Shown here: positions 913-25,893 of the stretch, piece after piece
How positions within the stretch are numbered: position 1 is the stretch's first letter
How the letters are laid out: every line of letters begins with the position of its first letter
Source: Escherichia phage T4
Direction: 5' to 3' (one strand)
Length of the DNA stretch: 64,000 nt
Sequence record: NC_000866.4
The notes under the pieces: generated by a model
Database searches by the model: none
What the model was told of the DNA's origin: nothing
What the model saw: only the letters and a program-made list of their open reading frames with translations
Translations under genes and position numbers: made by a program

Positions 913-938
913 ATAATCATGAGGTCCAGGTTGTTCCC

Positions 939-1355
939 TTATGCATAAATCGCCTTACCGTAGTATTTGTACCAAGTAGGACGTTGTGCAATTTTTTCAT
1001 CTAAACGAGCTTGTGATATAGCAATAGAAGCTTCATGGGGAATATAATCACCACGGAATTCCTGAGGAATATCACTAATATCCTGGACTGTAGTATCCTT
1101 GATATTAAAACCACGTTTTAAACATTCAGCTATAAGCTCAATTTGACGTTTACGTAAGAACTCGAGCTTATCGTAAAAGAATGTAACATGACCTGCGCCA
1201 AGGATAAAAGTAGGACTGATTTTAAAATCACGAACACGTTTACCGTTAGCAACATGCTTACGAACTGCACCAAAAACACGCGGCAATTCACGATATTCAG
1301 CCATTAAGTGTTGGTCAGCCAATTCAGATACTAAAGTAAGGTTGATACGAGTCAT
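939..1355 (-). CDS. denV: endonuclease V, pyrimidine-dimer DNA glycosylase/AP lyase
   Basis: 138-aa ORF ([28 protein letters not shown]...) matches my recollection of T4 endonuclease V. Confidence 0.95.
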
Positions 1356-7247: not shown

Positions 7248-7252
7248 GTAAT

Positions 7253-7918
7253 TTAAAATTTCATTTTTCGACCTTTAAACCATCCTTCTGGAATTGGGTC
7301 AGTTTTCTTAATACGTTTAGAAACTTTTTCATCTAATGAATGAATCCACATCATACCGAATTGGGAATTCTTTTCACCTTTCTGGTGATTATTTTTGGCG
7401 TGAGATTCTTTCATTTTATTAATAGTTTCAGGAGTATGATGCTTATTTAGAAATCTGCTATTATTTAAAAATTTTTCCCTGTATTCAGGAGTTGACCACA
7501 AACGTTTAAATACATTTGAACCAATTTTACGATATTTTTCTTGAAGTAAAATATCATTTTCAAAACGTGACTTAAACGATTTAGCTCCTTTTAAGCTAGC
7601 ATCTTTCTTCTGGTTTAGCATTCCAGGAATATTTACATGATCCCATCCACCTTCACCGCCAAGTTTTAAATTATACACATCTGGTCTATTTAAAAACTCT
7701 TCTGTGACAATATTTTTCTCGGCTTCAAGCATAGATTCTTTATCGTCAAAATACTCTAATATTTCTTTAGAAAAATTTTCTATACCATATTTATCTTGGG
7801 CTCTTTTTAATAATTTACCAGAACCCATATATCCATCATCTAAATTTTCGGTAGAATGCACACCAATATAAATTTTATTATTAATTTTATTTGTTATTTT
7901 ATAAGTGTAATAGAACAT
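7253..7918 (-). CDS. segB: GIY-YIG homing endonuclease
   Basis: 221-aa ORF with GIY-YIG motif (KIYIGVHSTENLDDGYMGSG); inserted between tRNA-Ile and tRNA-Arg as in T4. Confidence 0.85.
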   Translation of the reverse strand: MFYYTYKITNKINNKIYIGVHSTENLDDGYMGSGKLLKRAQDKYGIENFSKEILEYFDDKESMLEAEKNIVTEEFLNRPDVYNLKLGGEGGWDHVNIPGMLNQKKDASLKGAKSFKSRFENDILLQEKYRKIGSNVFKRLWSTPEYREKFLNNSRFLNKHHTPETINKMKESHAKNNHQKGEKNSQFGMMWIHSLDEKVSKRIKKTDPIPEGWFKGRKMKF

Positions 7919-7959
7919 AAATATCTCCTATTTCTAAGAGTATTTATGTTCTCAAAATA

Positions 7960-8117: not shown

Positions 8118-8204
8118 CGGAGGCGATAGGATTTGAACCTATGAGTCGCCGGAGCGACTGCCGGTTTTCAAGACCGGTGCATTAAACCACTCTGCCACGC
8201 CTCC
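8118..8204 (-). tRNA. tRNA-Ser (anticodon TGA), long variable arm
   Basis: reverse complement GGAGGCGTGGCAGAGTGG...CTTGAAA...GGTTCAAATCC...CGCCTCCG; acceptor stem GGAGGCG/CGCCTCC. Confidence 0.9.
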
Positions 8205-8206
8205 AG

Positions 8207-8280
8207 TCTCCATACAAGGATTTGAACCTTGGACCTCCTGATCCCAAATCAGGCGCTCTACCAAACTGAGCTACACGGAG
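8207..8280 (-). tRNA. tRNA-Pro (anticodon TGG)
   Basis: reverse complement CTCCGTGTAGCTCAGTTTGGTAGAGCGCCTGATTTGGGATCAGG...GGTTCAAATCC; anticodon stem CCTGA/TCAGG. Confidence 0.85.
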
Positions 8281-8290
8281 TAAATTAAAT

Positions 8291-8364
<74 letters not shown>

Positions 8365-8369
8365 AAATT

Positions 8370-8456
8370 TGGTGCGAGAAGTGGGACTCGAACCCACAAG
8401 GAAATCATTCCGCAGCATTTTAAGTGCTGTGCCTTTACCAATTTGACCATTCTCGC
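8370..8456 (-). tRNA. tRNA-Leu (anticodon TAA), long variable arm, CCA encoded
   Basis: reverse complement GCGAGAATGGTCAAATTGGTAAAGGCACAGCACTTAAAATGCTG...GGGTTCGAGTCCC...TTCTCGCACCA. Confidence 0.9.
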
Positions 8457-8457
8457 G

Positions 8458-8530
8458 CTGGGAATAAAGGACTCGAACCTTTGCATCTAGCAGTCAAAGT
8501 GCTATGCCTTACCAACTTGGCTAATTCCCA
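8458..8530 (-). tRNA. tRNA-Gln (anticodon TTG)
   Basis: reverse complement TGGGAATTAGCCAAGTTGGTAAGGCATAGCACTTTGACTGCTA...AGGTTCGAGTCCT...ATTCCCAG. Confidence 0.9.
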
Positions 8531-8594
8531 ATTATTAACAAAGGCTCTCTAACAAGAACCCTTGATGATAGAGGGTATTAATCAGTGCGGTATG

Positions 8595-8625
8595 AGTTAA
8601 TAATAACAAATAATTCTTAAAGCAT
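8595..8625 (-). promoter_or_regulatory. candidate middle promoter (MotA box ATGCTTTA plus AT-rich -10) for the tRNA cluster
   Basis: minus-strand ATGCTTTA at 8625..8618 matches the MotA-box consensus (a/t)(a/t)TGCTT(t/c)A; -10 assignment uncertain. Confidence 0.3.
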
Positions 8626-8627
8626 AT

Positions 8628-8921
8628 TTACCATTTATGATGATACGTATTTACGATACATTCAAGACCCAAAGGATTCTTGAAAATATCATATTCAAGA
8701 GGACCTTTTTCTGTTTCAATAAAGAAATCAAAATTTACTGTATTAAATTTACGGTCTTCCTTTACTAATTTAACTTGAGAAGATGAACGATCAATGTAAA
8801 CCTTTTCAACTTCAAAACACGTTAAAATGCCATAATCATCAATCAAGGCTTTAGCTGCTTCTTGATCATATTTATATCCATTTTCAACGGATGATACTTT
8901 CGCATAAAGAATCATCATCAA
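8628..8921 (-). CDS. hypothetical protein (T4 tRNA.2 position)
   Basis: 97-aa ORF; ATGA overlap with the upstream ORF. Confidence 0.55.
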   Translation of the reverse strand: MMMILYAKVSSVENGYKYDQEAAKALIDDYGILTCFEVEKVYIDRSSSQVKLVKEDRKFNTVNFDFFIETEKGPLEYDIFKNPLGLECIVNTYHHKW

Positions 8922-9328
8922 CCTCTATCAACAATAGCATGAGTATGGGCATTTACGATTTGCCACCAGTCGAAACGATTGGAACCATAATCTGGTTTAT
9001 TTTCATTTTCTTTAATGATATCACGCAGTTTATCTTCTGTTTCAGCATACGCAATTAAATCATCATATCCACCACAAGGATAATAATTATCACCTGCGAA
9101 TAAAAGAAAATTTACCTTAGATGGATTTACGTAATAATGGTCTTTAGGATATTTAGTTCCTCTCCAATCAGTTACTTCAACATAACGGTAAGAAAATCCA
9201 TTTTTACTTTCAATCCAACTCCACGCTTCAAAAGGAGTATTAAAAACTTTATCAGGTATTAAATTACCTTCAAAATGAGAAGGATTTGCATAATCCCCGG
9301 CATAAACATAATATTCGTTAATACTCAT
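8918..9328 (-). CDS. hypothetical protein (T4 tRNA.3 position)
   Basis: 136-aa ORF rich in aromatic residues; no motif recognised. Confidence 0.55.
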   Translation of the reverse strand: MSINEYYVYAGDYANPSHFEGNLIPDKVFNTPFEAWSWIESKNGFSYRYVEVTDWRGTKYPKDHYYVNPSKVNFLLFAGDNYYPCGGYDDLIAYAETEDKLRDIIKENENKPDYGSNRFDWWQIVNAHTHAIVDRG

Positions 9329-9514
9329 TTATTCACCTTTAGAAATTTTATCCATAACGATAGCAATTAAACCAATTAAAAATGCTACTACAAGTGAAAA
9401 CACATTTTCTGCTGTAGTTAATAATCCGCATATAAATCCAACAAACATTGAAAAACTAAAAGCAGAAGCAGAAATTGCAATAGCAACATTTCGAATTAAT
9501 TCACAGCGTTTCAT
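9329..9514 (-). CDS. hypothetical small membrane protein (T4 tRNA.4 position)
   Basis: 61-aa ORF with two hydrophobic helices; SD GAGGAG upstream; directly downstream of an early promoter. Confidence 0.5.
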   Translation of the reverse strand: MKRCELIRNVAIAISASAFSFSMFVGFICGLLTTAENVFSLVVAFLIGLIAIVMDKISKGE

Positions 9515-9542
9515 TTTATTCTCCTCAGTAGTTGATAGGGTA

Positions 9543-9572
9543 ATAGTATCACAGCTAAAACCCTATGTAAAC
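9543..9572 (-). promoter_or_regulatory. early promoter (-35 GTTTAC, 18-nt spacer, -10 TACTAT)
   Basis: minus-strand GTTTAC at 9572..9567, TACTAT at 9548..9543, conserved CTATCAACTAC leader; upstream AACTTTGTGAAA shared with the ipI promoter. Confidence 0.55.
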
Positions 9573-9590
9573 AACTTTGTGAAATATTTA

Positions 9591-9878
9591 TTACAAAAGA
9601 TTTTTAGCAATAATCTTGAGATGTGCCGCAGAAATGTGTTTAGCTTTAAACAACGCAGTTTCTTCAGCAGGAGAGATAACGATTGTAGCACCATCCTTTT
9701 TAGCAGACCACCCATCACCTAGGTAAACAGTACCTTTGATTTCTTCGCCATCAACCAGACTAATCATTGGTTTACCTTCTCGTCCTTTATTTGCTTTAAT
9801 AACTTCAGAAGTAAGAGTAGCTTCGGTAATGGTAGAAACCGGGGTAGTTGTAGAAGTAAATTCTTTAAATGTTTTCAT
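9591..9878 (-). CDS. ipI: internal protein I (packaged anti-restriction protein)
   Basis: 95-aa ORF (MKTFKEFTSTTTPVSTITEATL...) matching T4 IPI as I recall it. Confidence 0.9.
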   Translation of the reverse strand: MKTFKEFTSTTTPVSTITEATLTSEVIKANKGREGKPMISLVDGEEIKGTVYLGDGWSAKKDGATIVISPAEETALFKAKHISAAHLKIIAKNLL

Positions 9879-9909
9879 TTTTATTTTCCTAATTAATTTT
9901 GATGAGGTA

Positions 9910-9939
9910 ATAGTATCACTACCTCATCAGTATGTAAAC
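9910..9939 (-). promoter_or_regulatory. early promoter for ipI (-35 GTTTAC, -10 TACTAT)
   Basis: minus-strand GTTTAC at 9939..9934, TACTAT at 9915..9910; 9-bp inverted repeat GATGAGGTA/TACCTCATC flanks the -10. Confidence 0.55.
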
Positions 9940-9951
9940 AACTTTGTGAAA

Positions 9952-10648
<697 letters not shown>

Positions 10649-10649
<1 letters not shown>

Positions 10650-11374
10650 TATAGTACCTTTAGTGTATTTTTAATTTTAGAAAAAAGTTCTTCAAGAGAA
10701 CCATCGTTTGTAATTACTAAATCGCCATCACGAATTGGCAATCCAGCTTCTGTAATATGTGTATCATTGGATTTTTGACCAGGACGAACTACATGAATTA
10801 CTGTAGCACCCATCGCCCTAGCCGCATCCATTTCATGATCTTGACGGGTATCAGGAACGATATAATAATCATAACCTGAGTTAAATTTATCAAGATAATC
10901 TAAAGCAAATAATTTTACCCAGTACATGCGGTCGAAGTTATTAACAATCAAATCCGTACCTAGGGCTTGCATCAGACGACGGACTGACCATTGATCTTCA
11001 ATATTATTTATAACGTCAGTAATCTTATTAAATGCTACGAAATTAACTGATTCTTTTCCTTCGTCATCAAAAACAAACACACCTTTAATTGGGCTTTTAC
11101 CATTAAGATAACAAAATGCTTGTTCCATAATCGTGATTACTTCTAATTTAGTCAGATTTAAATTAGTCTCACGATCATAGTCAATTCCTTCAAACTCTTT
11201 ACGAGTTAAGCAAGGATAGTCAGTGTTTGCTGCAAATACTCCCCATGCATAAGCCAATGCATCCTTAATAGGACCAGCAAGTTGGTATTTAACTGCAGAA
11301 TAATTGCTCATGATAAAATCAGCAGTAGTATCTTTTCCACTACGCTTTACACCGCTTAAAAAGATTAGTTTCAT
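10649..11374 (-). CDS. 1: deoxynucleoside monophosphate kinase
   Basis: 241 aa from the ATG at 11374 (SD GAGGAG); P-loop GVKRSGKDT; the track ORF extends 13 codons further upstream. Confidence 0.9.
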
Positions 11375-11423
11375 GTGTTTCTCCTCAAATTTAATTAAGA
11401 TTATAACACACAAAACTGAAGCA

Positions 11424-11954
11424 TTAAACTTCTGCTATAATTTTACCATCTTTTTCTACTTGAAAATAGGTGTAAGGAATTGTTGCAGTACATACTAAAG
11501 CCGGGTCTGAATCTTCCGTGTAGCTAAATTCTACTTCAGATAGGTCAGAAACCCAAGGCTTATAAAAATTTATTGACATCACGATTTCAGTTTTGCTATT
11601 ATCTAAGATGTAAAGCGTAATGTACTCAGGACCTGTTTTTTGGGCAGTATTTTCACCTGTAAGATAGTTGCTAGTTCCTAGCATCCATTCATACATTCCT
11701 ATCCACGACTTAAGTTCTTCATCAACTATAAATCTCACAATGAGTGGATCATACTCAAATGTAACACCTGGACGTTGTGCTCGGCCCAGTCCAAACGGCC
11801 CAGTCACGGTATCAGTAACAGGTATTCTAATTCCTGGAATAGGAACTGACTGAGCATTTAAAGTAAAAGCAGATGTAGTATTACTATGTGGTATTGATAC
11901 TACAAAGTTAGTTGTATTTGCTTGGTTAAAAATTTGTTGCAGAGCTTGCGACAT
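11424..11954 (-). CDS. 3: tail completion / tail tube terminator protein gp3
   Basis: 176 aa from the ATG at 11954 (SD GAGGAA); the track ORF extends 27 codons upstream. Confidence 0.8.
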   Translation of the reverse strand: MSQALQQIFNQANTTNFVVSIPHSNTTSAFTLNAQSVPIPGIRIPVTDTVTGPFGLGRAQRPGVTFEYDPLIVRFIVDEELKSWIGMYEWMLGTSNYLTGENTAQKTGPEYITLYILDNSKTEIVMSINFYKPWVSDLSEVEFSYTEDSDPALVCTATIPYTYFQVEKDGKIIAEV

Positions 11955-12060
11955 ATATTCCTCATAATGCTTTATAACTGTTGGTGGTATAATGGGTCTA
12001 AGTCCCTTCCATTCAATTCCATTTAGAACAAACAACAGAAAAGAATGGAAGATAATAGAA

Positions 12061-12885
12061 TTAGATATTTGACCAGACTTTGTTTGCAGAGAAACGTTTT
12101 CCTTTTGAAACGAACTGCTGAAGTGGCATCAACACAACGTTCGCCCAGTCTTTCGGGGCGATTTCAACAAGGCTACCCATAATATTACCAGGTATATATG
12201 CCTTAATCATTTGGTCTGCACCCCTAAATCCTTTCACTTGACTCCAATCAATTTTTAATTTCGTTTTATTAGTAATAGTAGGTGTATTTGCATATTGCTT
12301 TAAAAGCTCTTCTAGGAATTGCTGACGAGCTTTAGGTGGAATATAGTGCAAGTTTAATCCGTACATTAAATTATGCTTACCTAAACCAAGGTAAATTATC
12401 AAAGGAAATTTATCCCAGTAAGGAAGAGTTTCCTTGTGTTTAGCATCATAAGCAAAAGCATATATTCGTCCCGGCTGCGGGCGAACAACTTTATGTCCTT
12501 TTACTTGCTTAATAGTTTCAGCAAACCACTTTCTGGTTTTATTATTAATTGCTGCGCCTTCATTACGAATTTTATCACGCAATGTTTGTCTGAATGAATT
12601 TATCATAAGCAGTTGTCTTTCTTGCTTATTGAGTTTATTCATTGGTTTTGATTCAAGTTTTTGAATCTTTTCAGCCGTTTTAATTCCTGAAGCATATTTT
12701 GACATTGCTGAAGTAAACGTAGAGTATTTGATTCCTCTTTCTTCAGCAAATTGCTTTCCTGTCATTCCTTTTGCTTTGGCCTTTTTATATTCAAGACCTA
12801 TCTGAATCCATTTCTTTTCGTTTAATGATTGCTTAACCTTTGGAACTTGGGGAGTGCTTTCATTAATTATTTGAAAAATAGCCAT
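12061..12885 (-). CDS. 2: DNA end-protector protein gp2
   Basis: 274-aa basic ORF, length and position as T4 gp2. Confidence 0.85.
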
Positions 12886-13337
12886 TATGCCCCCTTAAAG
12901 CCAAGAGCTCGTAATCCATCTTCTGTTAGAATTCTAAATTTTATTCCACGCTTTTCAGCTAAAGATTGTGCTGCTTTCCATTTGTCAGTGTTCACAGACC
13001 AGGTATAAATTTCATTCATAAATCTTTTCTTCGCTGCGGTCGTTAGATGTGCTGGTTTAACTGGTGGTTGTGTTTCTTTTTTAGGTTTTATTTCAATAAA
13101 AAATTCTTGTCCAGAAGAATCTTTCATCCAAATATCCATGAAGTATCTACGTTTTTTCCCTTCTGCATTACAAAAATAAGGAATTACTGCTGTTTCACTA
13201 CCCCATGCAATAATTTCTGGATTTTTATCTAACCATTCAAAAAAGAATTTTTCCCAATTTGATCTATACGTAATTTTTTTAGGGTCACCTCTATACTTTG
13301 ATATATTTTTAGGAACCCATTTTCCAGAATATGCCAT
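12885..13337 (-). CDS. 4: head completion protein gp4
   Basis: 150-aa ORF directly downstream of a minus-strand late promoter. Confidence 0.85.
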
Positions 13338-13348
13338 TGGATTCTCCT

Positions 13349-13356
13349 TATAAATA
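13349..13356 (+). promoter_or_regulatory. late promoter TATAAATA for gene 53
   Basis: exact TATAAATA 29 nt upstream of the gene 53 start codon. Confidence 0.65.
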
Positions 13357-13363
13357 GATAATA

Positions 13364-13371
13364 TATTTATA
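13364..13371 (-). promoter_or_regulatory. late promoter TATAAATA for gene 4 (divergent from the gene 53 promoter)
   Basis: plus-strand TATTTATA = minus-strand TATAAATA, 27 nt upstream of the gene 4 ATG. Confidence 0.65.
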
Positions 13372-13384
13372 AACAGGAGGGCCC

Positions 13385-13975
13385 ATGCTCTTTACATTTT
13401 TTGATCCGATTGAATATGCGGCCAAAACGGTGAATAAAAACGCGCCGACTATTCCTATGACAGATATTTTTAGAAACTATAAAGACTATTTTAAACGCGC
13501 TCTTGCGGGATACCGCTTACGTACTTATTATATTAAAGGTTCACCACGCCCGGAAGAATTAGCAAATGCTATATATGGAAATCCACAGCTGTATTGGGTT
13601 TTATTGATGTGTAATGATAATTATGACCCGTATTATGGATGGATTACTTCGCAAGAAGCTGCTTATCAAGCATCTATACAAAAATACAAAAACGTAGGTG
13701 GAGACCAAATAGTATATCATGTGAATGAGAACGGTGAAAAATTTTATAATTTAATATCATACGATGATAATCCATATGTTTGGTATGATAAAGGCGATAA
13801 AGCTAGAAAATATCCTCAATATGAAGGAGCGCTTGCTGCGGTCGATACGTATGAAGCTGCTGTTCTTGAAAATGAAAAACTTCGTCAAATAAAAATAATA
13901 GCAAAATCAGACATCAATTCATTTATGAACGACCTTATACGTATAATGGAGAAATCTTATGGAAATGATAAGTAA
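13385..13975 (+). CDS. 53: baseplate wedge protein gp53
   Basis: 196-aa ORF at the start of the late baseplate block. Confidence 0.85.
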   Translation: MLFTFFDPIEYAAKTVNKNAPTIPMTDIFRNYKDYFKRALAGYRLRTYYIKGSPRPEELANAIYGNPQLYWVLLMCNDNYDPYYGWITSQEAAYQASIQKYKNVGGDQIVYHVNENGEKFYNLISYDDNPYVWYDKGDKARKYPQYEGALAAVDTYEAAVLENEKLRQIKIIAKSDINSFMNDLIRIMEKSYGNDK

Positions 13976-15686
13976 TAACCTTAATTGGTTTGTCGGTGTT
14001 GTTGAAGATAGAATGGACCCATTAAAATTAGGTCGTGTTCGTGTTCGTGTGGTTGGTCTGCATCCACCTCAAAGAGCACAAGGTGATGTAATGGGTATTC
14101 CAACTGAAAAATTACCATGGATGTCAGTTATTCAACCTATAACTTCTGCAGCAATGTCTGGAATTGGAGGTTCTGTTACTGGACCAGTAGAAGGAACTAG
14201 AGTTTATGGTCATTTTTTAGACAAATGGAAAACTAATGGAATTGTCCTTGGCACGTATGGTGGAATAGTTCGCGAAAAACCGAATAGACTTGAAGGATTT
14301 TCTGACCCAACTGGGCAGTATCCTAGACGTTTAGGAAATGATACTAACGTACTAAACCAAGGTGGAGAAGTAGGATATGATTCGTCTTCTAACGTTATCC
14401 AAGATAGTAACTTAGACACCGCAATAAATCCCGATGATAGACCGCTATCAGAGATTCCGACCGATGATAATCCAAATATGTCAATGGCTGAAATGCTTCG
14501 CCGTGATGAAGGATTAAGATTAAAAGTTTATTGGGATACCGAAGGATATCCGACAATTGGTATTGGTCATCTTATCATGAAGCAGCCAGTTCGTGATATG
14601 GCTCAAATTAATAAAGTTTTATCAAAACAAGTTGGTCGTGAAATTACAGGAAATCCAGGTTCTATTACAATGGAAGAGGCGACGACTTTATTTGAGCGTG
14701 ATTTGGCTGATATGCAACGGGACATTAAATCACATTCTAAAGTAGGACCAGTCTGGCAAGCTGTCAACCGTTCTCGTCAAATGGCGTTAGAAAATATGGC
14801 ATTTCAGATGGGTGTTGGTGGTGTAGCTAAATTTAACACAATGTTAACTGCTATGTTAGCAGGAGATTGGGAAAAAGCGTATAAAGCCGGTCGTGATTCA
14901 TTGTGGTATCAACAAACAAAAGGCCGTGCATCCCGTGTTACCATGATTATTCTTACGGGGAATTTGGAATCATATGGTGTTGAAGTGAAAACCCCAGCTA
15001 GGTCTCTATCAGCAATGGCTGCTACTGTAGCTAAATCTTCTGACCCTGCTGACCCTCCTATTCCAAATGACTCGAGAATTTTATTCAAAGAACCAGTTTC
15101 TTCATATAAAGGTGAATATCCTTATGTGCATACAATGGAAACTGAAAGCGGACATATTCAGGAATTTGATGATACCCCTGGGCAAGAACGATATAGATTA
15201 GTTCATCCAACTGGAACTTATGAAGAAGTATCACCATCAGGAAGAAGAACAAGAAAAACTGTTGATAATTTGTATGATATAACCAATGCTGATGGTAATT
15301 TTTTGGTAGCCGGTGATAAAAAGACTAACGTCGGTGGTTCAGAAATTTATTATAACATGGATAATCGTTTACATCAAATCGATGGAAGCAATACAATATT
15401 TGTACGTGGAGACGAAACGAAAACTGTTGAAGGTAATGGAACTATCCTAGTTAAAGGTAATGTTACTATTATAGTTGAAGGTAATGCTGACATTACAGTT
15501 AAAGGAGATGCTACCACTTTAGTTGAAGGAAATCAAACTAACACAGTAAATGGAAATCTTTCTTGGAAAGTTGCCGGGACAGTTGATTGGGATGTCGGTG
15601 GTGATTGGACAGAAAAAATGGCATCTATGAGTTCTATTTCATCTGGTCAATACACAATTGATGGATCGAGGATTGACATTGGCTAA
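13959..15686 (+). CDS. 5: baseplate central spike with lysozyme domain, gp5
   Basis: 575-aa ORF; internal lysozyme domain (EMLRRDEGLRLKVYWDTEGYPTIGIGHLI) paralogous to e; C-terminal VxGxxxxx beta-helix repeats. Confidence 0.95.
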   Translation: MEMISNNLNWFVGVVEDRMDPLKLGRVRVRVVGLHPPQRAQGDVMGIPTEKLPWMSVIQPITSAAMSGIGGSVTGPVEGTRVYGHFLDKWKTNGIVLGTYGGIVREKPNRLEGFSDPTGQYPRRLGNDTNVLNQGGEVGYDSSSNVIQDSNLDTAINPDDRPLSEIPTDDNPNMSMAEMLRRDEGLRLKVYWDTEGYPTIGIGHLIMKQPVRDMAQINKVLSKQVGREITGNPGSITMEEATTLFERDLADMQRDIKSHSKVGPVWQAVNRSRQMALENMAFQMGVGGVAKFNTMLTAMLAGDWEKAYKAGRDSLWYQQTKGRASRVTMIILTGNLESYGVEVKTPARSLSAMAATVAKSSDPADPPIPNDSRILFKEPVSSYKGEYPYVHTMETESGHIQEFDDTPGQERYRLVHPTGTYEEVSPSGRRTRKTVDNLYDITNADGNFLVAGDKKTNVGGSEIYYNMDNRLHQIDGSNTIFVRGDETKTVEGNGTILVKGNVTIIVEGNADITVKGDATTLVEGNQTNTVNGNLSWKVAGTVDWDVGGDWTEKMASMSSISSGQYTIDGSRIDIG

Positions 15687-15720
15687 TATACTTCCAATGA
15701 GCGCTGATTTAGGAGAATCC

Positions 15721-16215
15721 ATGGAAGGTTCTTCTATCGACGTCACCTTTACCGCTCAATTAGAAACAGGTGAAACGTTAGTATCTATAAATATAACTAG
15801 TTACGAAGAAACTCCTGGGGTTTTAGTAGAAGAAAATCGCTTATATGGAACATATGAATCTGTATTTGGTTTCGGAAATGACGCGTTGAAATATCGTTTA
15901 GGCGATGAATTTAAAACTGCTGCTTCATGGGAAGAACTTCCTACTGATTCTGATACTCAGTTGTATTTGTGGAAAGCTCCTCAAAACCTCCAGAAGACAT
16001 TCACTTACGAAGTAACATTAATATATGACTACCAAGAACAAAGTGAATCTGGGGGTTCTGGCAGTAATTCTAGGTCATCTTCTGATACTACTGAACCGAC
16101 AGATCCTCCTGCTCCAGTAAGAAAAACTCTAGTTAAAAATTATACTAAAACTATAGTTGGAAATTGGAGTCGTTGGGCTAATAAACTGAGAAAATATGCC
16201 TATGCAAGACCATAA
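15721..16215 (+). CDS. hypothetical protein (T4 5.1 position)
   Basis: start chosen at the ATG at 15721 preceded by SD AGGAG; the track ORF (15658, TTG) overlaps the gene 5 end. Confidence 0.55.
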   Translation: MEGSSIDVTFTAQLETGETLVSINITSYEETPGVLVEENRLYGTYESVFGFGNDALKYRLGDEFKTAASWEELPTDSDTQLYLWKAPQNLQKTFTYEVTLIYDYQEQSESGGSGSNSRSSSDTTEPTDPPAPVRKTLVKNYTKTIVGNWSRWANKLRKYAYARP

Positions 16216-16618
16216 ATATTTTTATTTGTATTCAATAACTAATAAAACAACAGAAAAAATTTATGTAGGCGTCCACAAAACTTCAAATTTGGATGATGGG
16301 TATATGGGTTCTGGCGTTGCCATTAAAAATGCCATTAAAAAATATGGCATAGATAATTTTTATAAGCATATTATAAAATTCTTTGAATCTGAAAAAGCTA
16401 TGTATGACGCAGAGGCAGAAATAGTCACAGAGGAATTTGTTAAATCTAAGAAAACTTATAATATGAAACTAGGCGGTATCGGTGGCTTCCCAAAACATAA
16501 CACAGCGGGTGCTAAAAATGGATTTTACGGTAAATCTCATTCGCGTGAAACTAGATTGAAAATTAGCATTAAATCGTCTAGAAAAAGAGGGCCTAGAGGG
16601 CTAGAGGTAAAACTCTGA
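16196..16618 (+). CDS. segC: GIY-YIG homing endonuclease, catalytic N-terminal part
   Basis: 140-aa ORF with GIY-YIG motif (KIYVGVHKTSNLDDGYMGSG) and linker GKSHSRETRLKIS; ends at a TGA after which the homologous sequence continues in another frame. Confidence 0.7.
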   Translation: MPMQDHKYFYLYSITNKTTEKIYVGVHKTSNLDDGYMGSGVAIKNAIKKYGIDNFYKHIIKFFESEKAMYDAEAEIVTEEFVKSKKTYNMKLGGIGGFPKHNTAGAKNGFYGKSHSRETRLKISIKSSRKRGPRGLEVKL

Positions 16619-16620
16619 AG

Positions 16621-16791
16621 ATGTGTGGCGCCAATAACCCAAGGTATGGCAAAATAGCCCCTAATGCTAAATCTGTTATTATCAACGGCGTTTTATATAA
16701 AAGTATTAAAATCGCAGCTAAAGCTCTTAATATAAATTATAGTACCTTAAAGGGGCGAGTTAAAGCGGGGTATTATAAATGTCAGGATTAA
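16621..16791 (+). CDS. small ORF resembling the C-terminal DNA-binding region of a GIY-YIG endonuclease (T4 5.3 position)
   Basis: 56-aa [59 protein letters not shown] in frame 1, starting 3 nt after the stop of the GIY-YIG ORF (frame 2). Confidence 0.4.
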
Positions 16792-17072
16792 GTTATGATA
16801 AGTGTGTTACTGCTGGCCATGAAGCGTGGCCTCCAACAGTTGTGAATGCTACACAAAGTAAAGTATTCACTGGAGGAATTGCTGTTCTCGTAGCAGGCGA
16901 TCCAATTACAGAACATACAGAAATTAAAAAGCCGTATGAAACACATGGCGGAGTGACACAACCTAGAACTTCTAAGGTATATGTCACTGGAAAGAAAGCT
17001 GTTCAAATGGCTGATCCAATATCATGCGGTGATACTGTGGCTCAGGCATCATCTAAAGTATTCATTAAATAG
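16779..17072 (+). CDS. 5.4: PAAR-repeat spike-tip protein gp5.4
   Basis: 97-aa ORF, length and position as T4 gp5.4. Confidence 0.85.
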
Positions 17073-17080
17073 GATTTAAA

Positions 17081-19063
17081 ATGGCAAATACCCCTGTAAA
17101 TTATCAATTAACAAGAACAGCAAATGCTATTCCCGAGATATTCGTCGGGGGTACATTTGCTGAAATAAAACAAAACCTCATTGAATGGCTTAATGGCCAA
17201 AATGAATTTTTGGATTATGATTTTGAAGGCTCAAGATTAAACGTTCTGTGTGACCTTTTAGCTTATAATACATTATACATTCAGCAGTTTGGTAATGCTG
17301 CTGTGTATGAAAGCTTTATGCGTACTGCTAACTTACGAAGTTCAGTTGTTCAAGCTGCACAAGATAACGGATATTTACCTACTTCAAAATCCGCTGCGCA
17401 GACCGAAATTATGTTAACATGCACTGACGCATTGAATAGGAATTACATTACTATTCCTCGCGGAACTCGCTTTTTAGCATATGCAAAAGATACTTCTGTT
17501 AATCCATATAACTTCGTTTCTAGGGAAGACGTTATTGCTATTCGTGATAAAAATAACCAATATTTTCCGCGTTTAAAATTGGCCCAGGGACGTATAGTAA
17601 GAACTGAAATCATTTATGATAAATTAACACCTATTATCATTTATGATAAAAATATTGATAGAAACCAGGTTAAATTATACGTTGATGGAGCGGAATGGAT
17701 TAACTGGACGAGAAAGTCAATGGTTCATGCTGGTTCAACATCAACGATTTACTATATGCGTGAAACTATTGATGGAAACACTGAATTCTATTTTGGTGAA
17801 GGTGAAATTTCTGTTAATGCTTCTGAAGGAGCTTTGACCGCTAATTATATCGGAGGTCTTAAACCTACTCAGAACTCTACGATTGTTATTGAGTACATTA
17901 GTACTAATGGTGCTGACGCGAACGGAGCAGTCGGATTTTCATACGCAGATACATTAACAAATATAACTGTCATCAATATTAATGAAAATCCAAACGATGA
18001 TCCAGATTTTGTTGGGGCAGATGGAGGCGGTGATCCAGAAGATATTGAGCGTATTCGCGAATTGGGTACTATTAAACGCGAAACCCAACAACGATGCGTA
18101 ACTGCGACTGACTATGATACATTCGTTTCAGAGAGATTTGGTTCTATTATTCAAGCTGTTCAGACTTTCACTGATTCTACTAAACCTGGGTATGCATTTA
18201 TTGCTGCTAAACCTAAATCAGGATTGTATTTAACTACCGTACAGCGTGAAGATATTAAAAATTATCTCAAAGACTATAATTTAGCTCCTATTACGCCATC
18301 AATTATTTCTCCTAATTATCTTTTTATTAAGACTAATTTAAAAGTCACATATGCTTTAAATAAACTGCAAGAATCCGAACAGTGGCTTGAAGGTCAAATA
18401 ATTGATAAAATAGATCGCTATTATACCGAAGATGTAGAAATTTTTAACTCGTCTTTCGCTAAATCTAAGATGTTGACATATGTAGATGATGCAGATCATT
18501 CTGTCATTGGTTCATCAGCGACTATTCAAATGGTTCGTGAAGTACAAAACTTCTATAAAACGCCTGAAGCGGGTATTAAATACAATAATCAAATAAAAGA
18601 TCGTTCTATGGAATCTAATACGTTTTCATTTAATTCTGGACGAAAGGTTGTAAATCCTGATACTGGTTTAGAAGAAGATGTATTATATGACGTTCGTATA
18701 GTATCAACAGACCGAGATTCTAAAGGAATTGGTAAAGTTATTATTGGTCCATTTGCTTCTGGCGATGTTACAGAAAATGAAAACATTCAGCCGTATACAG
18801 GCAACGATTTTAACAAATTAGCAAATTCTGATGGACGCGACAAATACTATGTTATCGGTGAAATAAATTATCCAGCTGATGTGATTTATTGGAATATCGC
18901 TAAAATTAATTTAACATCTGAAAAATTTGAAGTTCAGACCATTGAATTATATTCTGACCCAACCGATGATGTTATCTTTACTCGCGATGGTTCACTGATT
19001 GTATTTGAAAATGACTTACGTCCACAATACTTAACTATCGATTTGGAGCCTATATCACAATGA
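17081..19063 (+). CDS. 6: baseplate wedge protein gp6
   Basis: 660-aa ORF, length and order as T4. Confidence 0.9.
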   Translation: MANTPVNYQLTRTANAIPEIFVGGTFAEIKQNLIEWLNGQNEFLDYDFEGSRLNVLCDLLAYNTLYIQQFGNAAVYESFMRTANLRSSVVQAAQDNGYLPTSKSAAQTEIMLTCTDALNRNYITIPRGTRFLAYAKDTSVNPYNFVSREDVIAIRDKNNQYFPRLKLAQGRIVRTEIIYDKLTPIIIYDKNIDRNQVKLYVDGAEWINWTRKSMVHAGSTSTIYYMRETIDGNTEFYFGEGEISVNASEGALTANYIGGLKPTQNSTIVIEYISTNGADANGAVGFSYADTLTNITVININENPNDDPDFVGADGGGDPEDIERIRELGTIKRETQQRCVTATDYDTFVSERFGSIIQAVQTFTDSTKPGYAFIAAKPKSGLYLTTVQREDIKNYLKDYNLAPITPSIISPNYLFIKTNLKVTYALNKLQESEQWLEGQIIDKIDRYYTEDVEIFNSSFAKSKMLTYVDDADHSVIGSSATIQMVREVQNFYKTPEAGIKYNNQIKDRSMESNTFSFNSGRKVVNPDTGLEEDVLYDVRIVSTDRDSKGIGKVIIGPFASGDVTENENIQPYTGNDFNKLANSDGRDKYYVIGEINYPADVIYWNIAKINLTSEKFEVQTIELYSDPTDDVIFTRDGSLIVFENDLRPQYLTIDLEPISQ

Positions 19064-22000
19064 CAGTAAAAGCACCTTCAGTCACTAGTCTCAGAATTTC
19101 CAAGTTATCCGCAAATCAGGTGCAAGTACGCTGGGATGACGTTGGTGCTAATTTCTACTATTTTGTAGAAATCGCTGAGACAAAAACAAACTCGGGGGAA
19201 AATCTCCCGAGTAATCAATATCGTTGGATTAATTTAGGATATACAGCAAATAATAGTTTCTTTTTTGATGATGCTGATCCATTAACAACATACATTATTA
19301 GAGTAGCCACAGCTGCGCAAGATTTTGAGCAGTCTGATTGGATTTATACCGAAGAGTTTGAAACTTTTGCTACAAATGCTTATACATTTCAAAACATGAT
19401 TGAAATGCAATTAGCCAATAAATTCATTCAGGAAAAATTTACTCTTAATAATTCTGATTATGTTAATTTTAATAATGATACTATAATGGCTGCATTGATG
19501 AATGAATCATTCCAATTCAGCCCATCGTATGTTGATGTTTCATCAATAAGTAATTTTATTATTGGTGAAAATGAGTATCATGAAATACAAGGTTCTATTC
19601 AGCAAGTATGTAAGGATATTAACCGAGTTTATTTGATGGAATCAGAAGGAATTCTATATCTTTTTGAGCGCTATCAACCTGTAGTTAAAGTATCCAATGA
19701 TAAAGGACAAACCTGGAAAGCTGTAAAGCTCTTCAATGACCGTGTAGGATATCCTTTATCTAAGACAGTATATTACCAATCTGCGAACACAACATACGTT
19801 CTAGGATACGACAAGATTTTCTATGGCCGCAAATCTACTGATGTTAGATGGTCAGCCGATGATGTCAGATTTAGTTCTCAGGATATAACATTTGCTAAAC
19901 TTGGCGACCAATTACATCTAGGATTTGATGTAGAAATTTTTGCCACTTACGCGACTTTACCAGCGAATGTATACCGCATTGCAGAAGCTATTACTTGCAC
20001 CGATGATTACATTTACGTTGTCGCCAGAGACAAAGTTAGATACATAAAAACGAGTAATGCACTTATAGATTTTGATCCATTATCTCCAACATATTCGGAA
20101 AGACTTTTTGAACCTGATACCATGACTATAACCGGAAATCCTAAAGCAGTATGCTATAAAATGGATTCTATCTGTGATAAAGTTTTTGCTCTTATTATTG
20201 GTGAAGTTGAAACATTAAATGCTAATCCTAGAACATCAAAAATAATTGATTCCGCTGATAAAGGAATATATGTTTTAAATCATGACGAAAAAACATGGAA
20301 AAGAGTTTTTGGTAATACCGAAGAAGAAAGAAGACGTATTCAACCCGGATATGCGAATATGTCAACTGACGGTAAATTAGTTTCTCTGTCTTCGAGTAAT
20401 TTTAAATTTTTAAGTGATAATGTTGTTAATGACCCTGAAACTGCAGCAAAATATCAGTTAATTGGCGCTGTTAAATATGAATTTCCTCGTGAATGGTTAG
20501 CTGATAAGCATTATCATATGATGGCATTTATAGCGGATGAAACATCTGATTGGGAGACTTTTACTCCTCAACCAATGAAATACTACGCAGAACCATTCTT
20601 TAACTGGTCTAAAAAATCTAACACACGTTGTTGGATAAACAACTCTGATAGAGCTGTGGTAGTTTATGCTGATTTAAAATACACTAAAGTTATAGAAAAT
20701 ATTCCGGAAACATCACCAGATAGATTAGTTCATGAATACTGGGATGATGGTGATTGCACTATAGTAATGCCAAATGTCAAATTCACTGGATTTAAAAAAT
20801 ACGCATCAGGAATGCTTTTCTATAAAGCCTCCGGTGAAATAATTTCTTACTATGATTTTAACTATCGTGTGAGAGATACAGTAGAAATTATTTGGAAGCC
20901 AACTGAAGTATTTTTAAAAGCATTTTTACAAAACCAAGAGCATGAGACTCCTTGGTCACCAGAAGAAGAGCGTGGATTAGCTGACCCTGATTTAAGACCA
21001 TTAATTGGCACAATGATGCCTGATTCTTATTTGTTACAGGATTCGAATTTTGAGGCATTTTGCGAAGCATATATTCAGTATCTTTCTGATGGATATGGAA
21101 CTCAATACAATAATTTACGAAATTTAATTCGTAACCAATATCCACGAGAAGAGCACGCATGGGAATATTTGTGGTCAGAGATATATAAAAGAAACATTTA
21201 TTTAAATGCTGATAAACGCGATGCTGTTGCGAGATTCTTTGAATCACGTAGCTATGATTTTTATTCTACTAAAGGAATTGAAGCATCATACAAGTTTCTT
21301 TTTAAAGTTCTTTATAATGAAGAAGTTGAAATTGAAATTGAATCTGGGGCTGGTACTGAATATGATATAATCGTTCAATCTGATTCTTTGACTGAAGATT
21401 TAGTAGGACAAACGATTTATACGGCAACAGGAAGATGTAATGTTACTTATATAGAAAGAAGCTATTCTAATGGTAAATTGCAATGGACCGTAACTATTCA
21501 TAATCTTTTGGGACGATTAATTGCTGGTCAAGAAGTTAAAGCAGAAAGACTCCCTAGTTTTGAAGGCGAAATTATTCGTGGGGTTAAAGGAAAGGATTTG
21601 CTTCAAAACAATATAGACTATATTAATAGAAGTAGATCATACTATGTAATGAAAATTAAATCCAATTTACCTTCTTCCCGCTGGAAATCTGACGTTATTC
21701 GTTTTGTTCATCCAGTAGGATTTGGATTTATAGCAATTACCCTTTTAACAATGTTTATTAATGTTGGTTTAACTCTTAAACATACAGAGACTATAATTAA
21801 TAAATACAAAAACTATAAATGGGATTCTGGATTGCCTACTGAATATGCCGACAGAATAGCTAAATTAACTCCAACCGGTGAAATTGAGCATGATTCAGTA
21901 ACAGGCGAAGCAATTTATGAGCCTGGCCCAATGGCTGGTGTAAAATATCCTCTTCCTGATGACTATAATGCTGAAAATAATAATTCAATATTTCAAGGTC

Positions 22001-22158
22001 AATTGCCGTCTGAACGACGTAAATTAATGAGTCCTTTATTTGATGCATCTGGAACAACATTTGCGCAATTTAGAGATTTAGTTAATAAACGTCTAAAAGA
22101 TAATATAGGAAATCCAAGAGACCCTGAAAATCCAACACAGGTTAAAATAGATGAATGA
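19060..22158 (+). CDS. 7: baseplate wedge protein gp7
   Basis: 1032-aa ORF, ATGA-coupled to gene 6. Confidence 0.9.
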   Translation: MTVKAPSVTSLRISKLSANQVQVRWDDVGANFYYFVEIAETKTNSGENLPSNQYRWINLGYTANNSFFFDDADPLTTYIIRVATAAQDFEQSDWIYTEEFETFATNAYTFQNMIEMQLANKFIQEKFTLNNSDYVNFNNDTIMAALMNESFQFSPSYVDVSSISNFIIGENEYHEIQGSIQQVCKDINRVYLMESEGILYLFERYQPVVKVSNDKGQTWKAVKLFNDRVGYPLSKTVYYQSANTTYVLGYDKIFYGRKSTDVRWSADDVRFSSQDITFAKLGDQLHLGFDVEIFATYATLPANVYRIAEAITCTDDYIYVVARDKVRYIKTSNALIDFDPLSPTYSERLFEPDTMTITGNPKAVCYKMDSICDKVFALIIGEVETLNANPRTSKIIDSADKGIYVLNHDEKTWKRVFGNTEEERRRIQPGYANMSTDGKLVSLSSSNFKFLSDNVVNDPETAAKYQLIGAVKYEFPREWLADKHYHMMAFIADETSDWETFTPQPMKYYAEPFFNWSKKSNTRCWINNSDRAVVVYADLKYTKVIENIPETSPDRLVHEYWDDGDCTIVMPNVKFTGFKKYASGMLFYKASGEIISYYDFNYRVRDTVEIIWKPTEVFLKAFLQNQEHETPWSPEEERGLADPDLRPLIGTMMPDSYLLQDSNFEAFCEAYIQYLSDGYGTQYNNLRNLIRNQYPREEHAWEYLWSEIYKRNIYLNADKRDAVARFFESRSYDFYSTKGIEASYKFLFKVLYNEEVEIEIESGAGTEYDIIVQSDSLTEDLVGQTIYTATGRCNVTYIERSYSNGKLQWTVTIHNLLGRLIAGQEVKAERLPSFEGEIIRGVKGKDLLQNNIDYINRSRSYYVMKIKSNLPSSRWKSDVIRFVHPVGFGFIAITLLTMFINVGLTLKHTETIINKYKNYKWDSGLPTEYADRIAKLTPTGEIEHDSVTGEAIYEPGPMAGVKYPLPDDYNAENNNSIFQGQLPSERRKLMSPLFDASGTTFAQFRDLVNKRLKDNIGNPRDPENPTQVKIDE

Positions 22159-23155
22159 TTCAAGTGTTATCTATCGTGCGATAGTTACTTCAAAATTTAG
22201 AACAGAAAAAATGTTGAATTTTTATAATTCAATTGGAAGTGGTCCGGATAAAAACACTATCTTTATCACATTTGGAAGATCAGAACCGTGGTCATCAAAT
22301 GAAAATGAGGTGGGCTTTGCCCCACCTTATCCAACCGATTCTGTATTAGGCGTAACTGACATGTGGACGCATATGATGGGAACAGTAAAAGTTCTTCCAT
22401 CAATGCTTGATGCTGTTATTCCTCGCAGAGATTGGGGAGATACTAGATATCCGGATCCATACACATTTAGAATTAACGATATTGTAGTGTGTAACTCAGC
22501 TCCTTACAACGCTACTGAATCAGGCGCTGGTTGGTTAGTGTATCGTTGTTTAGATGTTCCTGATACCGGAATGTGTTCAATAGCATCTTTAACTGATAAA
22601 GATGAATGCCTTAAGTTAGGTGGAAAATGGACTCCTTCTGCTAGGTCAATGACTCCGCCTGAAGGTCGAGGAGATGCTGAAGGAACAATTGAACCCGGAG
22701 ACGGGTATGTGTGGGAATATCTATTTGAGATTCCGCCTGATGTATCTATAAATAGATGCACGAATGAATATATCGTGGTTCCTTGGCCTGAGGAATTAAA
22801 AGAAGACCCGACTAGATGGGGATATGAAGATAATCTCACTTGGCAACAAGATGATTTTGGATTAATTTACCGTGTTAAGGCAAATACTATCCGTTTTAAA
22901 GCATATTTAGATTCAGTTTATTTTCCTGAAGCTGCATTACCAGGAAATAAAGGATTTAGACAAATATCAATAATCACGAATCCTCTTGAAGCTAAAGCTC
23001 ATCCAAATGACCCAAACGTTAAAGCTGAAAAGGATTATTATGACCCAGAAGATTTAATGAGGCATTCGGGTGAAATGATTTATATGGAAAATAGGCCACC
23101 TATTATTATGGCAATGGATCAAACAGAAGAAATCAATATTCTGTTTACATTTTAA
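22151..23155 (+). CDS. 8: baseplate wedge protein gp8
   Basis: 334-aa ORF overlapping the gene 7 end. Confidence 0.9.
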   Translation: MNDSSVIYRAIVTSKFRTEKMLNFYNSIGSGPDKNTIFITFGRSEPWSSNENEVGFAPPYPTDSVLGVTDMWTHMMGTVKVLPSMLDAVIPRRDWGDTRYPDPYTFRINDIVVCNSAPYNATESGAGWLVYRCLDVPDTGMCSIASLTDKDECLKLGGKWTPSARSMTPPEGRGDAEGTIEPGDGYVWEYLFEIPPDVSINRCTNEYIVVPWPEELKEDPTRWGYEDNLTWQQDDFGLIYRVKANTIRFKAYLDSVYFPEAALPGNKGFRQISIITNPLEAKAHPNDPNVKAEKDYYDPEDLMRHSGEMIYMENRPPIIMAMDQTEEINILFTF

Positions 23156-23160
23156 ATTAA

Positions 23161-23185
23161 GGGAGCCCATGGGCTCCCTTTTTCT
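23161..23185 (+). terminator. rho-independent terminator after gene 8
   Basis: GGGAGCCCATGGGCTCCC perfect hairpin followed by TTTTT. Confidence 0.7.
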
Positions 23186-23186
23186 T

Positions 23187-23194
23187 TATAAATA
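23187..23194 (+). promoter_or_regulatory. late promoter TATAAATA for gene 9
   Basis: exact TATAAATA 25 nt upstream of the gene 9 start. Confidence 0.65.
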
Positions 23195-23218
23195 CTATAA
23201 ACTCATAAGGAAACCGCT

Positions 23219-24085
23219 ATGTTCATTCAAGAACCAAAGAAATTGATTGATACCGGCGAAATTGGTAACGCTTCTACTGGTGATATCTTATTCGACGGTG
23301 GTAATAAAATTAATAGTGATTTTAACGCAATTTATAATGCGTTTGGCGATCAGCGTAAAATGGCAGTAGCAAATGGCACTGGAGCAGATGGTCAAATTAT
23401 CCATGCTACTGGATATTATCAAAAACACTCTATTACAGAGTACGCAACTCCAGTGAAAGTTGGCACTAGACATGATATTGATACCTCTACTGTAGGTGTT
23501 AAAGTTATCATTGAAAGAGGCGAACTCGGCGATTGTGTTGAATTCATTAACTCTAATGGATCAATATCAGTTACTAATCCTTTGACAATTCAAGCTATTG
23601 ATTCAATTAAAGGTGTTTCAGGTAATTTAGTAGTAACTAGCCCATATAGTAAAGTTACTTTACGCTGTATTTCATCTGATAATTCTACGTCGGTTTGGAA
23701 TTATTCTATTGAAAGTATGTTTGGACAAAAGGAATCACCAGCTGAAGGTACATGGAATATTTCTACATCTGGATCAGTTGACATTCCATTATTTCATCGT
23801 ACTGAATACAATATGGCTAAATTGCTAGTTACGTGCCAATCGGTAGATGGAAGAAAAATTAAAACAGCAGAAATAAATATTCTTGTGGATACTGTTAATT
23901 CAGAGGTAATTTCTTCTGAATATGCTGTCATGCGAGTTGGGAATGAAACCGAAGAAGACGAAATCGCTAATATTGCATTTAGTATTAAAGAAAATTATGT
24001 AACGGCGACTATAAGTTCTTCAACTGTCGGTATGAGAGCAGCAGTTAAAGTTATCGCTACGCAGAAAATCGGGGTGGCTCAATAA
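23219..24085 (+). CDS. 9: baseplate protein gp9 (long tail fibre socket)
   Basis: 288-aa ORF. Confidence 0.9.
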   Translation: MFIQEPKKLIDTGEIGNASTGDILFDGGNKINSDFNAIYNAFGDQRKMAVANGTGADGQIIHATGYYQKHSITEYATPVKVGTRHDIDTSTVGVKVIIERGELGDCVEFINSNGSISVTNPLTIQAIDSIKGVSGNLVVTSPYSKVTLRCISSDNSTSVWNYSIESMFGQKESPAEGTWNISTSGSVDIPLFHRTEYNMAKLLVTCQSVDGRKIKTAEINILVDTVNSEVISSEYAVMRVGNETEEDEIANIAFSIKENYVTATISSSTVGMRAAVKVIATQKIGVAQ

Positions 24086-25893
24086 TGAAACAAAATATTA
24101 ATATCGGTAATGTTGTAGATGATGGTACCGGTGACTACCTGCGTAAAGGTGGTATAAAAATAAATGAAAACTTTGATGAGCTTTATTATGAACTCGGTGA
24201 TGGTGATGTTCCATATTCAGCCGGTGCCTGGAAAACTTATAATGCTTCATCAGGACAAACATTAACAGCAGAATGGGGAAAATCATACGCTATTAATACA
24301 TCTTCTGGAAGAGTGACTATAAATCTTCCAAAGGGTACAGTTAATGATTACAACAAGGTAATTAGAGCTAGAGACGTATTTGCTACATGGAACGTCAACC
24401 CAGTTACACTAGTAGCTGCTTCCGGCGATACGATTAAAGGGTCTGCAGTACCAGTTGAAATTAATGTTCGATTCAGCGATTTAGAACTAGTGTATTGTGC
24501 CCCAGGACGTTGGGAATATGTCAAAAATAAACAAATTGACAAAATTACCAGTTCAGACATTAGTAATGTAGCTCGCAAAGAATTTTTAGTTGAAGTTCAA
24601 GGACAAACAGACTTTTTAGATGTTTTCCGTGGAACTAGTTATAATGTAAATAACATCAGAGTAAAACATCGTGGTAACGAATTGTATTACGGCGATGTGT
24701 TTAGCGAAAACAGCGATTTTGGCTCTCCAGGCGAAAATGAAGGAGAACTGGTTCCTCTTGATGGATTTAACATTCGATTAAGACAGCCTTGTAATATTGG
24801 TGACACTGTTCAAATTGAAACATTTATGGATGGTGTATCACAGTGGAGAAGTTCATATACAAGACGTCAAATTAGATTGTTAGATTCAAAATTAACGTCA
24901 AAAACTTCTTTAGAAGGAAGCATTTACGTTACTGATTTATCAACAATGAAATCAATTCCATTTTCTGCTTTTGGATTAATTCCAGGAGAACCTATTAATC
25001 CTAACTCTCTTGAGGTTCGTTTTAACGGGATTTTACAGGAATTGGCTGGCACAGTTGGAATGCCATTATTTCATTGTGTTGGTGCCGATTCAGACGATGA
25101 AGTAGAATGCTCTGTTTTAGGTGGAACTTGGGAACAATCTCATACCGATTATTCAGTTGAAACTGATGAAAACGGCATACCAGAAATTTTACATTTCGAT
25201 AGCGTATTTGAGCATGGTGACATTATCAATATCACCTGGTTTAATAATGATTTGGGTACATTATTAACAAAAGATGAGATTATTGATGAAACTGATAATC
25301 TCTATGTATCGCAAGGACCTGGAGTAGATATTTCTGGTGATGTAAATTTAACAGACTTCGATAAAATTGGTTGGCCAAATGTAGAAGCAGTTCAATCTTA
25401 TCAACGCGCATTTAATGCTGTTTCAAATATCTTTGATACGATTTATCCTATTGGAACTATATATGAAAACGCTGTTAATCCAAATAACCCTGTTACATAT
25501 ATGGGATTCGGCTCATGGAAATTATTTGGGCAAGGAAAAGTTTTAGTTGGATGGAATGAAGATATTTCGGACCCTAACTTTGCTCTAAATAACAACGATT
25601 TAGATTCGGGTGGAAATCCTTCACATACCGCAGGTGGAACAGGTGGTTCTACTTCTGTTACATTGGAAAATGCTAATCTTCCTGCAACTGAAACAGATGA
25701 AGAAGTTCTAATAGTTGATGAAAATGGATCAGTCATTGTTGGTGGGTGTCAATACGATCCAGATGAATCCGGTCCAATTTACACTAAATACCGTGAAGCT
25801 AAAGCATCTACTAACTCTACTCACACTCCGCCAACATCAATAACTAACATTCAACCATATATTACAGTTTATCGTTGGATAAGGATTGCATAA
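24085..25893 (+). CDS. 10: baseplate wedge protein gp10
   Basis: 602-aa ORF, coupled to gene 9. Confidence 0.9.

Follow-up and report, generated by a model that had tools for sequence, protein, structure and literature searches.

The GIY-YIG motif A consists of GIY, a spacer of 10–11 residues and YIG (Edgell, 2010). SegC of phage T4 is entered as 'Active: Yes' in Table 1 of that paper, where Shcherbakov (2002) is cited for the entry, and a 20-bp overlap of the start of segC with gene 5.1 has also been reported (Edgell, 2010). The T4 record NC_000866 (168,903 bp) was compiled from the data of many laboratories (Petrov et al., PMC2993671), and a single stock was the source of the T4T genome sequence (HM137666; PMC2993671). 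Here, we analyze the segC region in a stretch of 64,000 nucleotides of NC_000866.4, which we refer to as the window. In the window segC is split, and we consider it very likely that the split gene is in fact an intact gene for a 198-aa SegC into which the compiled record has introduced a legacy sequencing error.

The segC region of the window contains two open reading frames (ORFs) in different frames. An earlier note, made from the sequence alone, had described them as a GIY-YIG homing endonuclease divided by a frame change, and both the 140-aa and the 56-aa ORF are present as described. The second ORF starts two bases after the first, and its frame is open from 16597, immediately after a TAG in that frame at 16594-16596. 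The genes around segC are those for gp5 (baseplate lysozyme), 5.1, 5.4 (PAAR protein) and gp6. segC sits between 5.1 and 5.4, with the same position and overlaps as in T4T and MT984581, and its end overlaps the start of 5.4 (16779). A promoter and terminator scan of 15600..17200 gave nothing over the shuffled expectation that is relevant to the segC split. The features of the region are listed in Table 1.

Table 1. Features of the segC region, with positions in the window.
Feature	Position	Strand	Basis or remark
140-aa ORF (ORF1)	16196..16618	+	ORF reading of the window; TGA at 16616-16618
56-aa ORF (ORF2)	16621..16791	+	Frame different from that of ORF1
segC codons 1-135	16196..16600	+	Frame of the 140-aa ORF; tblastn with 198-aa SegC, 100% identity
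Overlap of segC start and 5.1 end, 20 nt	16196..16215	+	T4T annotation
GIY-YIG catalytic domain, ~residues 9-83	16220..16444	+	Profile match
NUMOD3 motif, residues 105-124	16508..16567	+	Profile match
GC-rich 9-nt tandem repeat GGGCCTAGA / GGG^CTAGA / GG	16586..16607	+	Tandem Repeats Finder and alignments
segC codons 136-198 and stop	16601..16791	+	Frame of the 56-aa ORF (legacy 'gene 5.3')
I-TevI-type helix-turn-helix	~16648..16767	+	Within codons 136-198
segC cassette	16218..16774	+	557 nt in the window, 558 nt in intact T4

Alignment with T4T and MT984581, and a three-way alignment with T4T and T4 'wild', show directly that the window is without one C between 16600 and 16601. The intact site reads GGGCCTAGAGGG[C]CTAGAGG, in which the bracketed C is the base missing in the window; the form of the site without this C reads GGGCCTAGAGGGCTAGAGG, and the form with it reads GGGCCTAGAGGGCCTAGAGG. 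The missing base belongs to a GGGCC run within the 9-nt tandem repeat of Table 1, which in intact T4 encodes GPRGPRG. Restoring the C at 16600/16601 yields a 198-aa ORF that equals the SegC annotated in T4T and MT984581, where segC is one 597-nt gene of 198 aa. This confirms the suggestion that a single indel within 16597..16618 would fuse the two ORFs, and the missing C is the sole cause of the segC frame change. With one C missing the frame is shifted, and an artificial 140-aa 'SegC' and an artificial 56-aa 'gp5.3' result. ORF1 of the window ends with LEVKL and a stop, where intact SegC goes on as PRGKTLKM..., and the ATG of ORF2 at 16621 is the internal Met143 of intact SegC. Residues 137-198 of SegC were found by tblastn at 16603..16788, with 100% identity.

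Profile searches bear out the homology that had been claimed for the two ORFs, namely to GIY-YIG nucleases for the first and to DNA-binding domains for the second. ORF1 matched SegE_GIY-YIG (PF19835) at 27.9 bits (cut-off 25) and NUMOD3 (PF07460) at 23.5 bits (cut-off 20.4); with the general GIY-YIG model (PF01541) it scored 19.9 bits, below the cut-off of 22.6. ORF2 alone matched I-TevI_DNA-bd (PF20987) at 27.2 bits (cut-off 27). In the fused 198-aa protein, NUMOD3 scored 28.3 bits and I-TevI_DNA-bd 23.8 bits, the latter under its cut-off. The sequence GANNPRYGK in the segC tail forms a second NUMOD3-like stretch. Motif A of SegC is made up of YLY (residues 10-12), 10 residues and YVG (residues 23-25). 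In an alignment of 14 homologues Y12, Y23 and G25 are invariant, as are E73 and N89, candidates for the Glu of motif D and the Asn of motif E, which lie near the expected places of I-TevI E75 and N90 by position rather than by residue-level mapping. For the catalytic Arg of motif B, no conserved arginine was seen after YVG, where SegC has H27-K28.

The AlphaFold model of the 198-aa protein is in keeping with this assignment. Its N-terminal domain was predicted with pLDDT 75-87, and its C-terminus was predicted, at moderate confidence (pLDDT 54-74), as a hairpin followed by two helices. The top three matches of a Foldseek search in the PDB were all the I-TevI catalytic domain (probability 0.99-1.00, TM 0.60-0.63, E = 0.012-0.05). 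In the same whole-protein search the I-TevI DNA-binding domain appeared at rank 4 and was not significant (E = 0.64), and phmmer with the 198-aa SegC as a single sequence gave no match among PDB sequences.

The DNA-binding region is continuous over the junction. The homologues P0016, P0017 and P0018, with 93%, 74% and 61% identity to SegC, run across it uninterrupted, and the residues conserved there follow the pattern ...RG..KG...K.G..NP.[YF]GK...NAKS..I.GV.YKSIK.A..AL.INY.TLKGR. A profile built from six homologues and extending from NUMOD3 in ORF1 through the helix-turn-helix in ORF2 gave one unbroken alignment to PDB 1I3J residues 46-108 (E = 3.1e-8). Hence the artificial break lies within the DNA-binding region, where it separates the NUMOD3 helix from the helix-turn-helix, and not at the boundary of the catalytic and DNA-binding parts where the earlier note had placed it.

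This position of the break bears on the idea of a two-piece enzyme, in which the 140-aa nuclease would associate non-covalently with a separately translated 56-aa DNA-binding peptide. The 56-aa ORF does have an ATG start and encodes the whole helix-turn-helix. However, the break cuts a region whose counterpart in I-TevI forms one uninterrupted domain, all SegC homologues are single chains, and the split is unique to the compiled record. In addition, the nearest Shine-Dalgarno-like sequence, GAGG (16604-16607), lies 13 nt from the ATG, whereas the optimum is 6-9 nt (Edgell, 2010). We therefore regard a two-piece SegC, which had been put forward as one way of reading the split, as very improbable.

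The cassette that contains segC points in the same direction as the protein alignments. Phage T2 is without it as one block: in a blastn comparison with the T2 locus, homology ends at 16217 and restarts at 16775, and the junction alignment places ATAAAT at both borders of the cassette. The two 'halves' of segC are acquired or lost as a unit. It is present in ~35 of 683 matching records. Together with motif A, the PF19835 match, the fold and the C-terminal DNA-binding module, the mobile cassette completes the set of GIY-YIG homing endonuclease features found for SegC.

At the empty site of T2 (870..960 of locus L005, compared with window 16170..16217 and 16769..16790), the stop codon of 5.1 and the start codon of 5.4 overlap in the sequence TAAATG, and in T4 the cassette lies between two copies of ATAAAT. 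The first seven codons of SegC are in sequence common to T2. Substitutions between T4 and T2 are clustered in the last ~25 nt of 5.1; they could be a co-conversion tract or could provide target-site immunity.

The presence of the C was then traced in other records. A 91-nt query across the site retrieved 35 other phage records that hold this stretch. In all 35 it spans 92 nt rather than the 91 nt of the window, which not one of them matches exactly. Twelve of these records, from different laboratories, are named T4; also among them are RB55 and RB59, as well as natural isolates with Shigella, Salmonella and Citrobacter as hosts, which have 95-99% identity and keep the ORF. Over 1.6 kb around segC, the window shares 99.9% identity with a dozen genomes of phage T4. 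At the protein level, the exact 198-aa SegC, which is also UniProt SEGC_BPT4, was found on 199 contigs of the protein collection, and close variants of 196-198 aa on several dozen further contigs, so that full-length variants occur on more than 240 in all. The 140-aa form (AAD42656.1, NP_049761.1) was counted on 1 contig, the 168,903-bp compiled T4 record; the compiled reference and one Logan contig that copies it base for base are the only places where this form occurs.

The same records bear on programmed −1 frameshifting or P-site slippage on GUA-AAA-C (16607..16613), which would join the two ORFs while keeping the endonuclease low. Tight down-regulation is common among homing endonucleases (Edgell, 2010), the tRNA-Lys on AAA at 16610-16612 could re-pair at AAA 16609-16611, and the target frame is open there. 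Nevertheless, the frame break is conserved in 0 of the 35 records; the homologues are single ORFs, and a frameshift is unnecessary in all other T4 genomes. The local sequence is no more favorable. The full X XXY YYZ heptamer is absent from the open interval 16597..16618, which offers a single-codon A AAA C slip only, and a slip on the A-run upstream would meet the TAG in the target frame. The 77 nt downstream have a fold z of +0.45, with 138 of 200 shuffles folding at least as well. A frameshifted enzyme, another of the earlier proposals, is thus scarcely conceivable.

Gene decay, which had been suggested as well, likewise finds no support: segC has one lesion only, apart from which its two parts match the intact gene at 100% identity, and the natural relatives keep the ORF, which is intact in all 35 other records.

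Several of the records show irregularities of their own. In some newer ones, 'gp5.3' is a transferred annotation inside an intact segC. Namely, MT984581 and KJ477684-KJ477686 carry the annotation 'gp5.3 conserved hypothetical protein' even though their DNA encodes intact segC, and in KJ477684 the full segC is left without any annotation; a phantom gene 5.3 is spreading by annotation transfer. Two records named 'Mutant Escherichia phage T4 clone' (MZ375356 and OL964745) have 9-11 nt fewer in the 1.6-kb region, and segC is called in them from a start further downstream, with a product of 134 aa. Both are engineered mutants with reduced genomes and not cases of natural decay, and theirs are the sole other shortened segC calls. 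The homologue P0017, a 186-aa protein from Logan, differs from SegC by changes that are nearly all of the C-to-T type (T>I, S>F, A>V, P>F/L, H>Y, R>C/W), with its frame intact and GFRGFRG where SegC has GPRGPRG. The pattern of these substitutions suggests that P0017 was assembled from reads of T4 DNA that had undergone bisulfite or deaminase conversion.

To place the missing C among the other peculiarities of the record, we aligned all 64 kb of the window with two genomes from different laboratories, T4T and T4 'wild' (KJ477684). The alignment has ~129 differing columns, in ~75 events, and in all but 3 columns the window is the odd one out while T4T and 'wild' agree. Among the private differences are transpositions of adjacent bases (CG/GC, GT/TG, AT/TA) and pairs of compensating indels separated by a few bases. 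A further ten private indels are uncompensated, the segC base being one of them. The others include +9 at 798-806 (a tandem CTCTATAAG, vs.8), +1 at 3596 (e.2 region), +1 at 7130 (rnaC/rnaD region), +1 at 42555 and −2 at 58733 (alt.-3 region); −2 at 58402 and −1 at 58410, in the gene 54 region, together restore the frame. At 45973 the window is missing 33 nt of T4T and 'wild', with CTCGAG (XhoI) on both sides, and judging from these flanking sites the loss looks like a small XhoI fragment missed in clone-based sequencing. Gene 24.3 (minus strand, 45915..46097) encodes 60 aa in the window and is annotated with 67 aa in T4T.

For one of these differences the verdict has been published. In the window, uvsW is a fused ORF of 587 aa at 48677..50440, produced by a private difference at 50182; at 50182-50186, T4T and 'wild' differ from the window by one additional T and by other changes, which give uvsW (502 aa) and uvsW.1 (76 aa). 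Crystallography and resequencing have established that T4 really has the two ORFs uvsW and uvsW.1 (Nolan et al., 2006, PMC1524935). The class of differences to which the segC base belongs therefore includes at least one proven error. Other reference-private alleles are as isolated as the 140-aa form: the gp12 of the window, with 7 amino-acid differences, occurs on 1 contig and the T4T allele on 105, and for gp6 the counts are 1 contig for the window's allele and 205 for the other. When T4 reads were compared with AF158101, 55 short indels were reported (Rihtman, 2016, PMC4893331), and the same report states that some of those differences would have gone uncalled had T4T been the reference (Rihtman et al., PMC4893331). 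Taken as a whole, the private differences of the window look like legacy sequencing or cloning artefacts.

The evidence to the contrary is a single Logan contig. SRR33189851_3883 (52,429 bp, 2 samples) encodes the exact 140-aa protein and matches window 8196..24618 at 100% identity over 16.4 kb; it shares the missing C and nine further differences that are private to the reference. If an actual phage stock were the source of the SRR33189851 reads, a T4 lineage would genuinely carry the frame break and these other differences as alleles. The contig is an exact copy of a compilation from many laboratories, found in a sample with thousands of contigs, and it therefore probably derives from simulated or reference-derived reads; DNA synthesised to match the reference would give the same result. 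A literature search found no paper that names SRR33189851.

This contig is also part of the case for a real private mutation, according to which the sequenced clone or stock carried a 1-nt deletion in the 9-nt repeat and so represents a lineage with an inactivated, decaying SegC. Replication slippage would be plausible at a short tandem repeat, and homing endonuclease genes are dispensable and often decay, which speaks for such a mutation, as does the reproduction of the deletion in one Logan contig. However, the deletion occurs in 0 of the 35 other phage records and in none of the more than 240 contigs with full-length SegC variants. The Logan contig, moreover, repeats every reference-private difference in its 16.4 kb, as expected of reads derived from the reference and not of a natural lineage. 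The other private differences are themselves artefact-like, with the one at uvsW/uvsW.1 a published error. On balance, we find a private mutation of this kind unlikely. It is decidedly unlikely that some living T4 lineage, represented by the original stock and possibly by the material of SRR33189851, truly lacks this C. If it were, the SegC of that lineage would be cut off from its helix-turn-helix, and the lineage would be a natural test of whether the nuclease with the NUMOD3 helix, alone or with a separate 56-aa peptide, still homes. Given that SegC is listed as active and that site-specific activity would need the DNA-binding tail, an enzyme without the helix-turn-helix is hard to square with that listing.

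We infer instead that the missing base is a sequencing error and not a real mutation of the sequenced stock. A loss of this kind is typical of band compression or of a reading error in gel-based sequencing, and GGGCC runs tend to compress on sequencing gels. The real product of segC would then be one free-standing GIY-YIG homing endonuclease of 198 residues, predicted to consist of an N-terminal GIY-YIG nuclease, a linker helix (NUMOD3) and, at the C-terminus, a helix-turn-helix of the I-TevI type that confers site specificity. By analogy with what the literature describes for Seg enzymes, its C-terminal domain would bind DNA, the DNA of phage without segC would be cut, and the gene would be copied in by repair.

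The segC split is already corrected in T4T and in UniProt, and we found no explicit comment on the segC/5.3 frame problem in the accessible literature. The legacy 168,903-bp record is still a widely used T4 reference, and it carries both the split segC and the phantom 'gene 5.3'. Anyone who scans this compiled reference for frameshifts, split genes or small ORFs will continue to meet such artefacts, of which the fused uvsW/uvsW.1 and the shortened 24.3 are similar examples. The split of segC thus holds no new homing-endonuclease biology, and its value is as a warning about the reference.

Compared with known systems, the locus is the same gene as SegC of T4 (SEGC_BPT4; ADJ39869.1 in T4T HM137666), its ORFs being 100% identical to residues 1-135 and 137-198, and it differs from the corrected SegC by the one C at 16600/16601. 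Its GIY-YIG paralogues in the window are SegB (~7250..7920, minus strand), SegD (~42540..43220, minus strand) and SegE (48057..48674, plus strand). The earlier note had likened the tail to the C-termini of Seg and I-TevI-type enzymes and had called for an alignment with segB, segD and segE. The N-terminal domain aligned by tblastn with all three at 50-53% identity over ~90-100 residues, whereas the 56-aa tail gave no alignment: the C-terminal regions of SegB, SegD and SegE have no BLAST-detectable likeness to it, and SegE has no match to I-TevI_DNA-bd in Pfam. The likeness to I-TevI itself held, both in PF20987 and in 1I3J.

SegC shares the layout of I-TevI (1MK0 and 1LN0 for the catalytic domain, 1I3J for the DNA-binding domain), with a GIY-YIG domain, a NUMOD3-type linker helix and a C-terminal helix-turn-helix. 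I-TevI is intron-encoded, whereas SegC is free-standing, shorter (198 aa) and ~20% identical in the fold alignment; on limited inspection, a zinc finger was not seen in the SegC linker. The closest parallel to the lesion is uvsW/uvsW.1, where a one-base discrepancy private to the compiled sequence likewise alters ORFs. The two cases are opposite in their effect, as the uvsW error fuses two real ORFs and the error in segC splits one.
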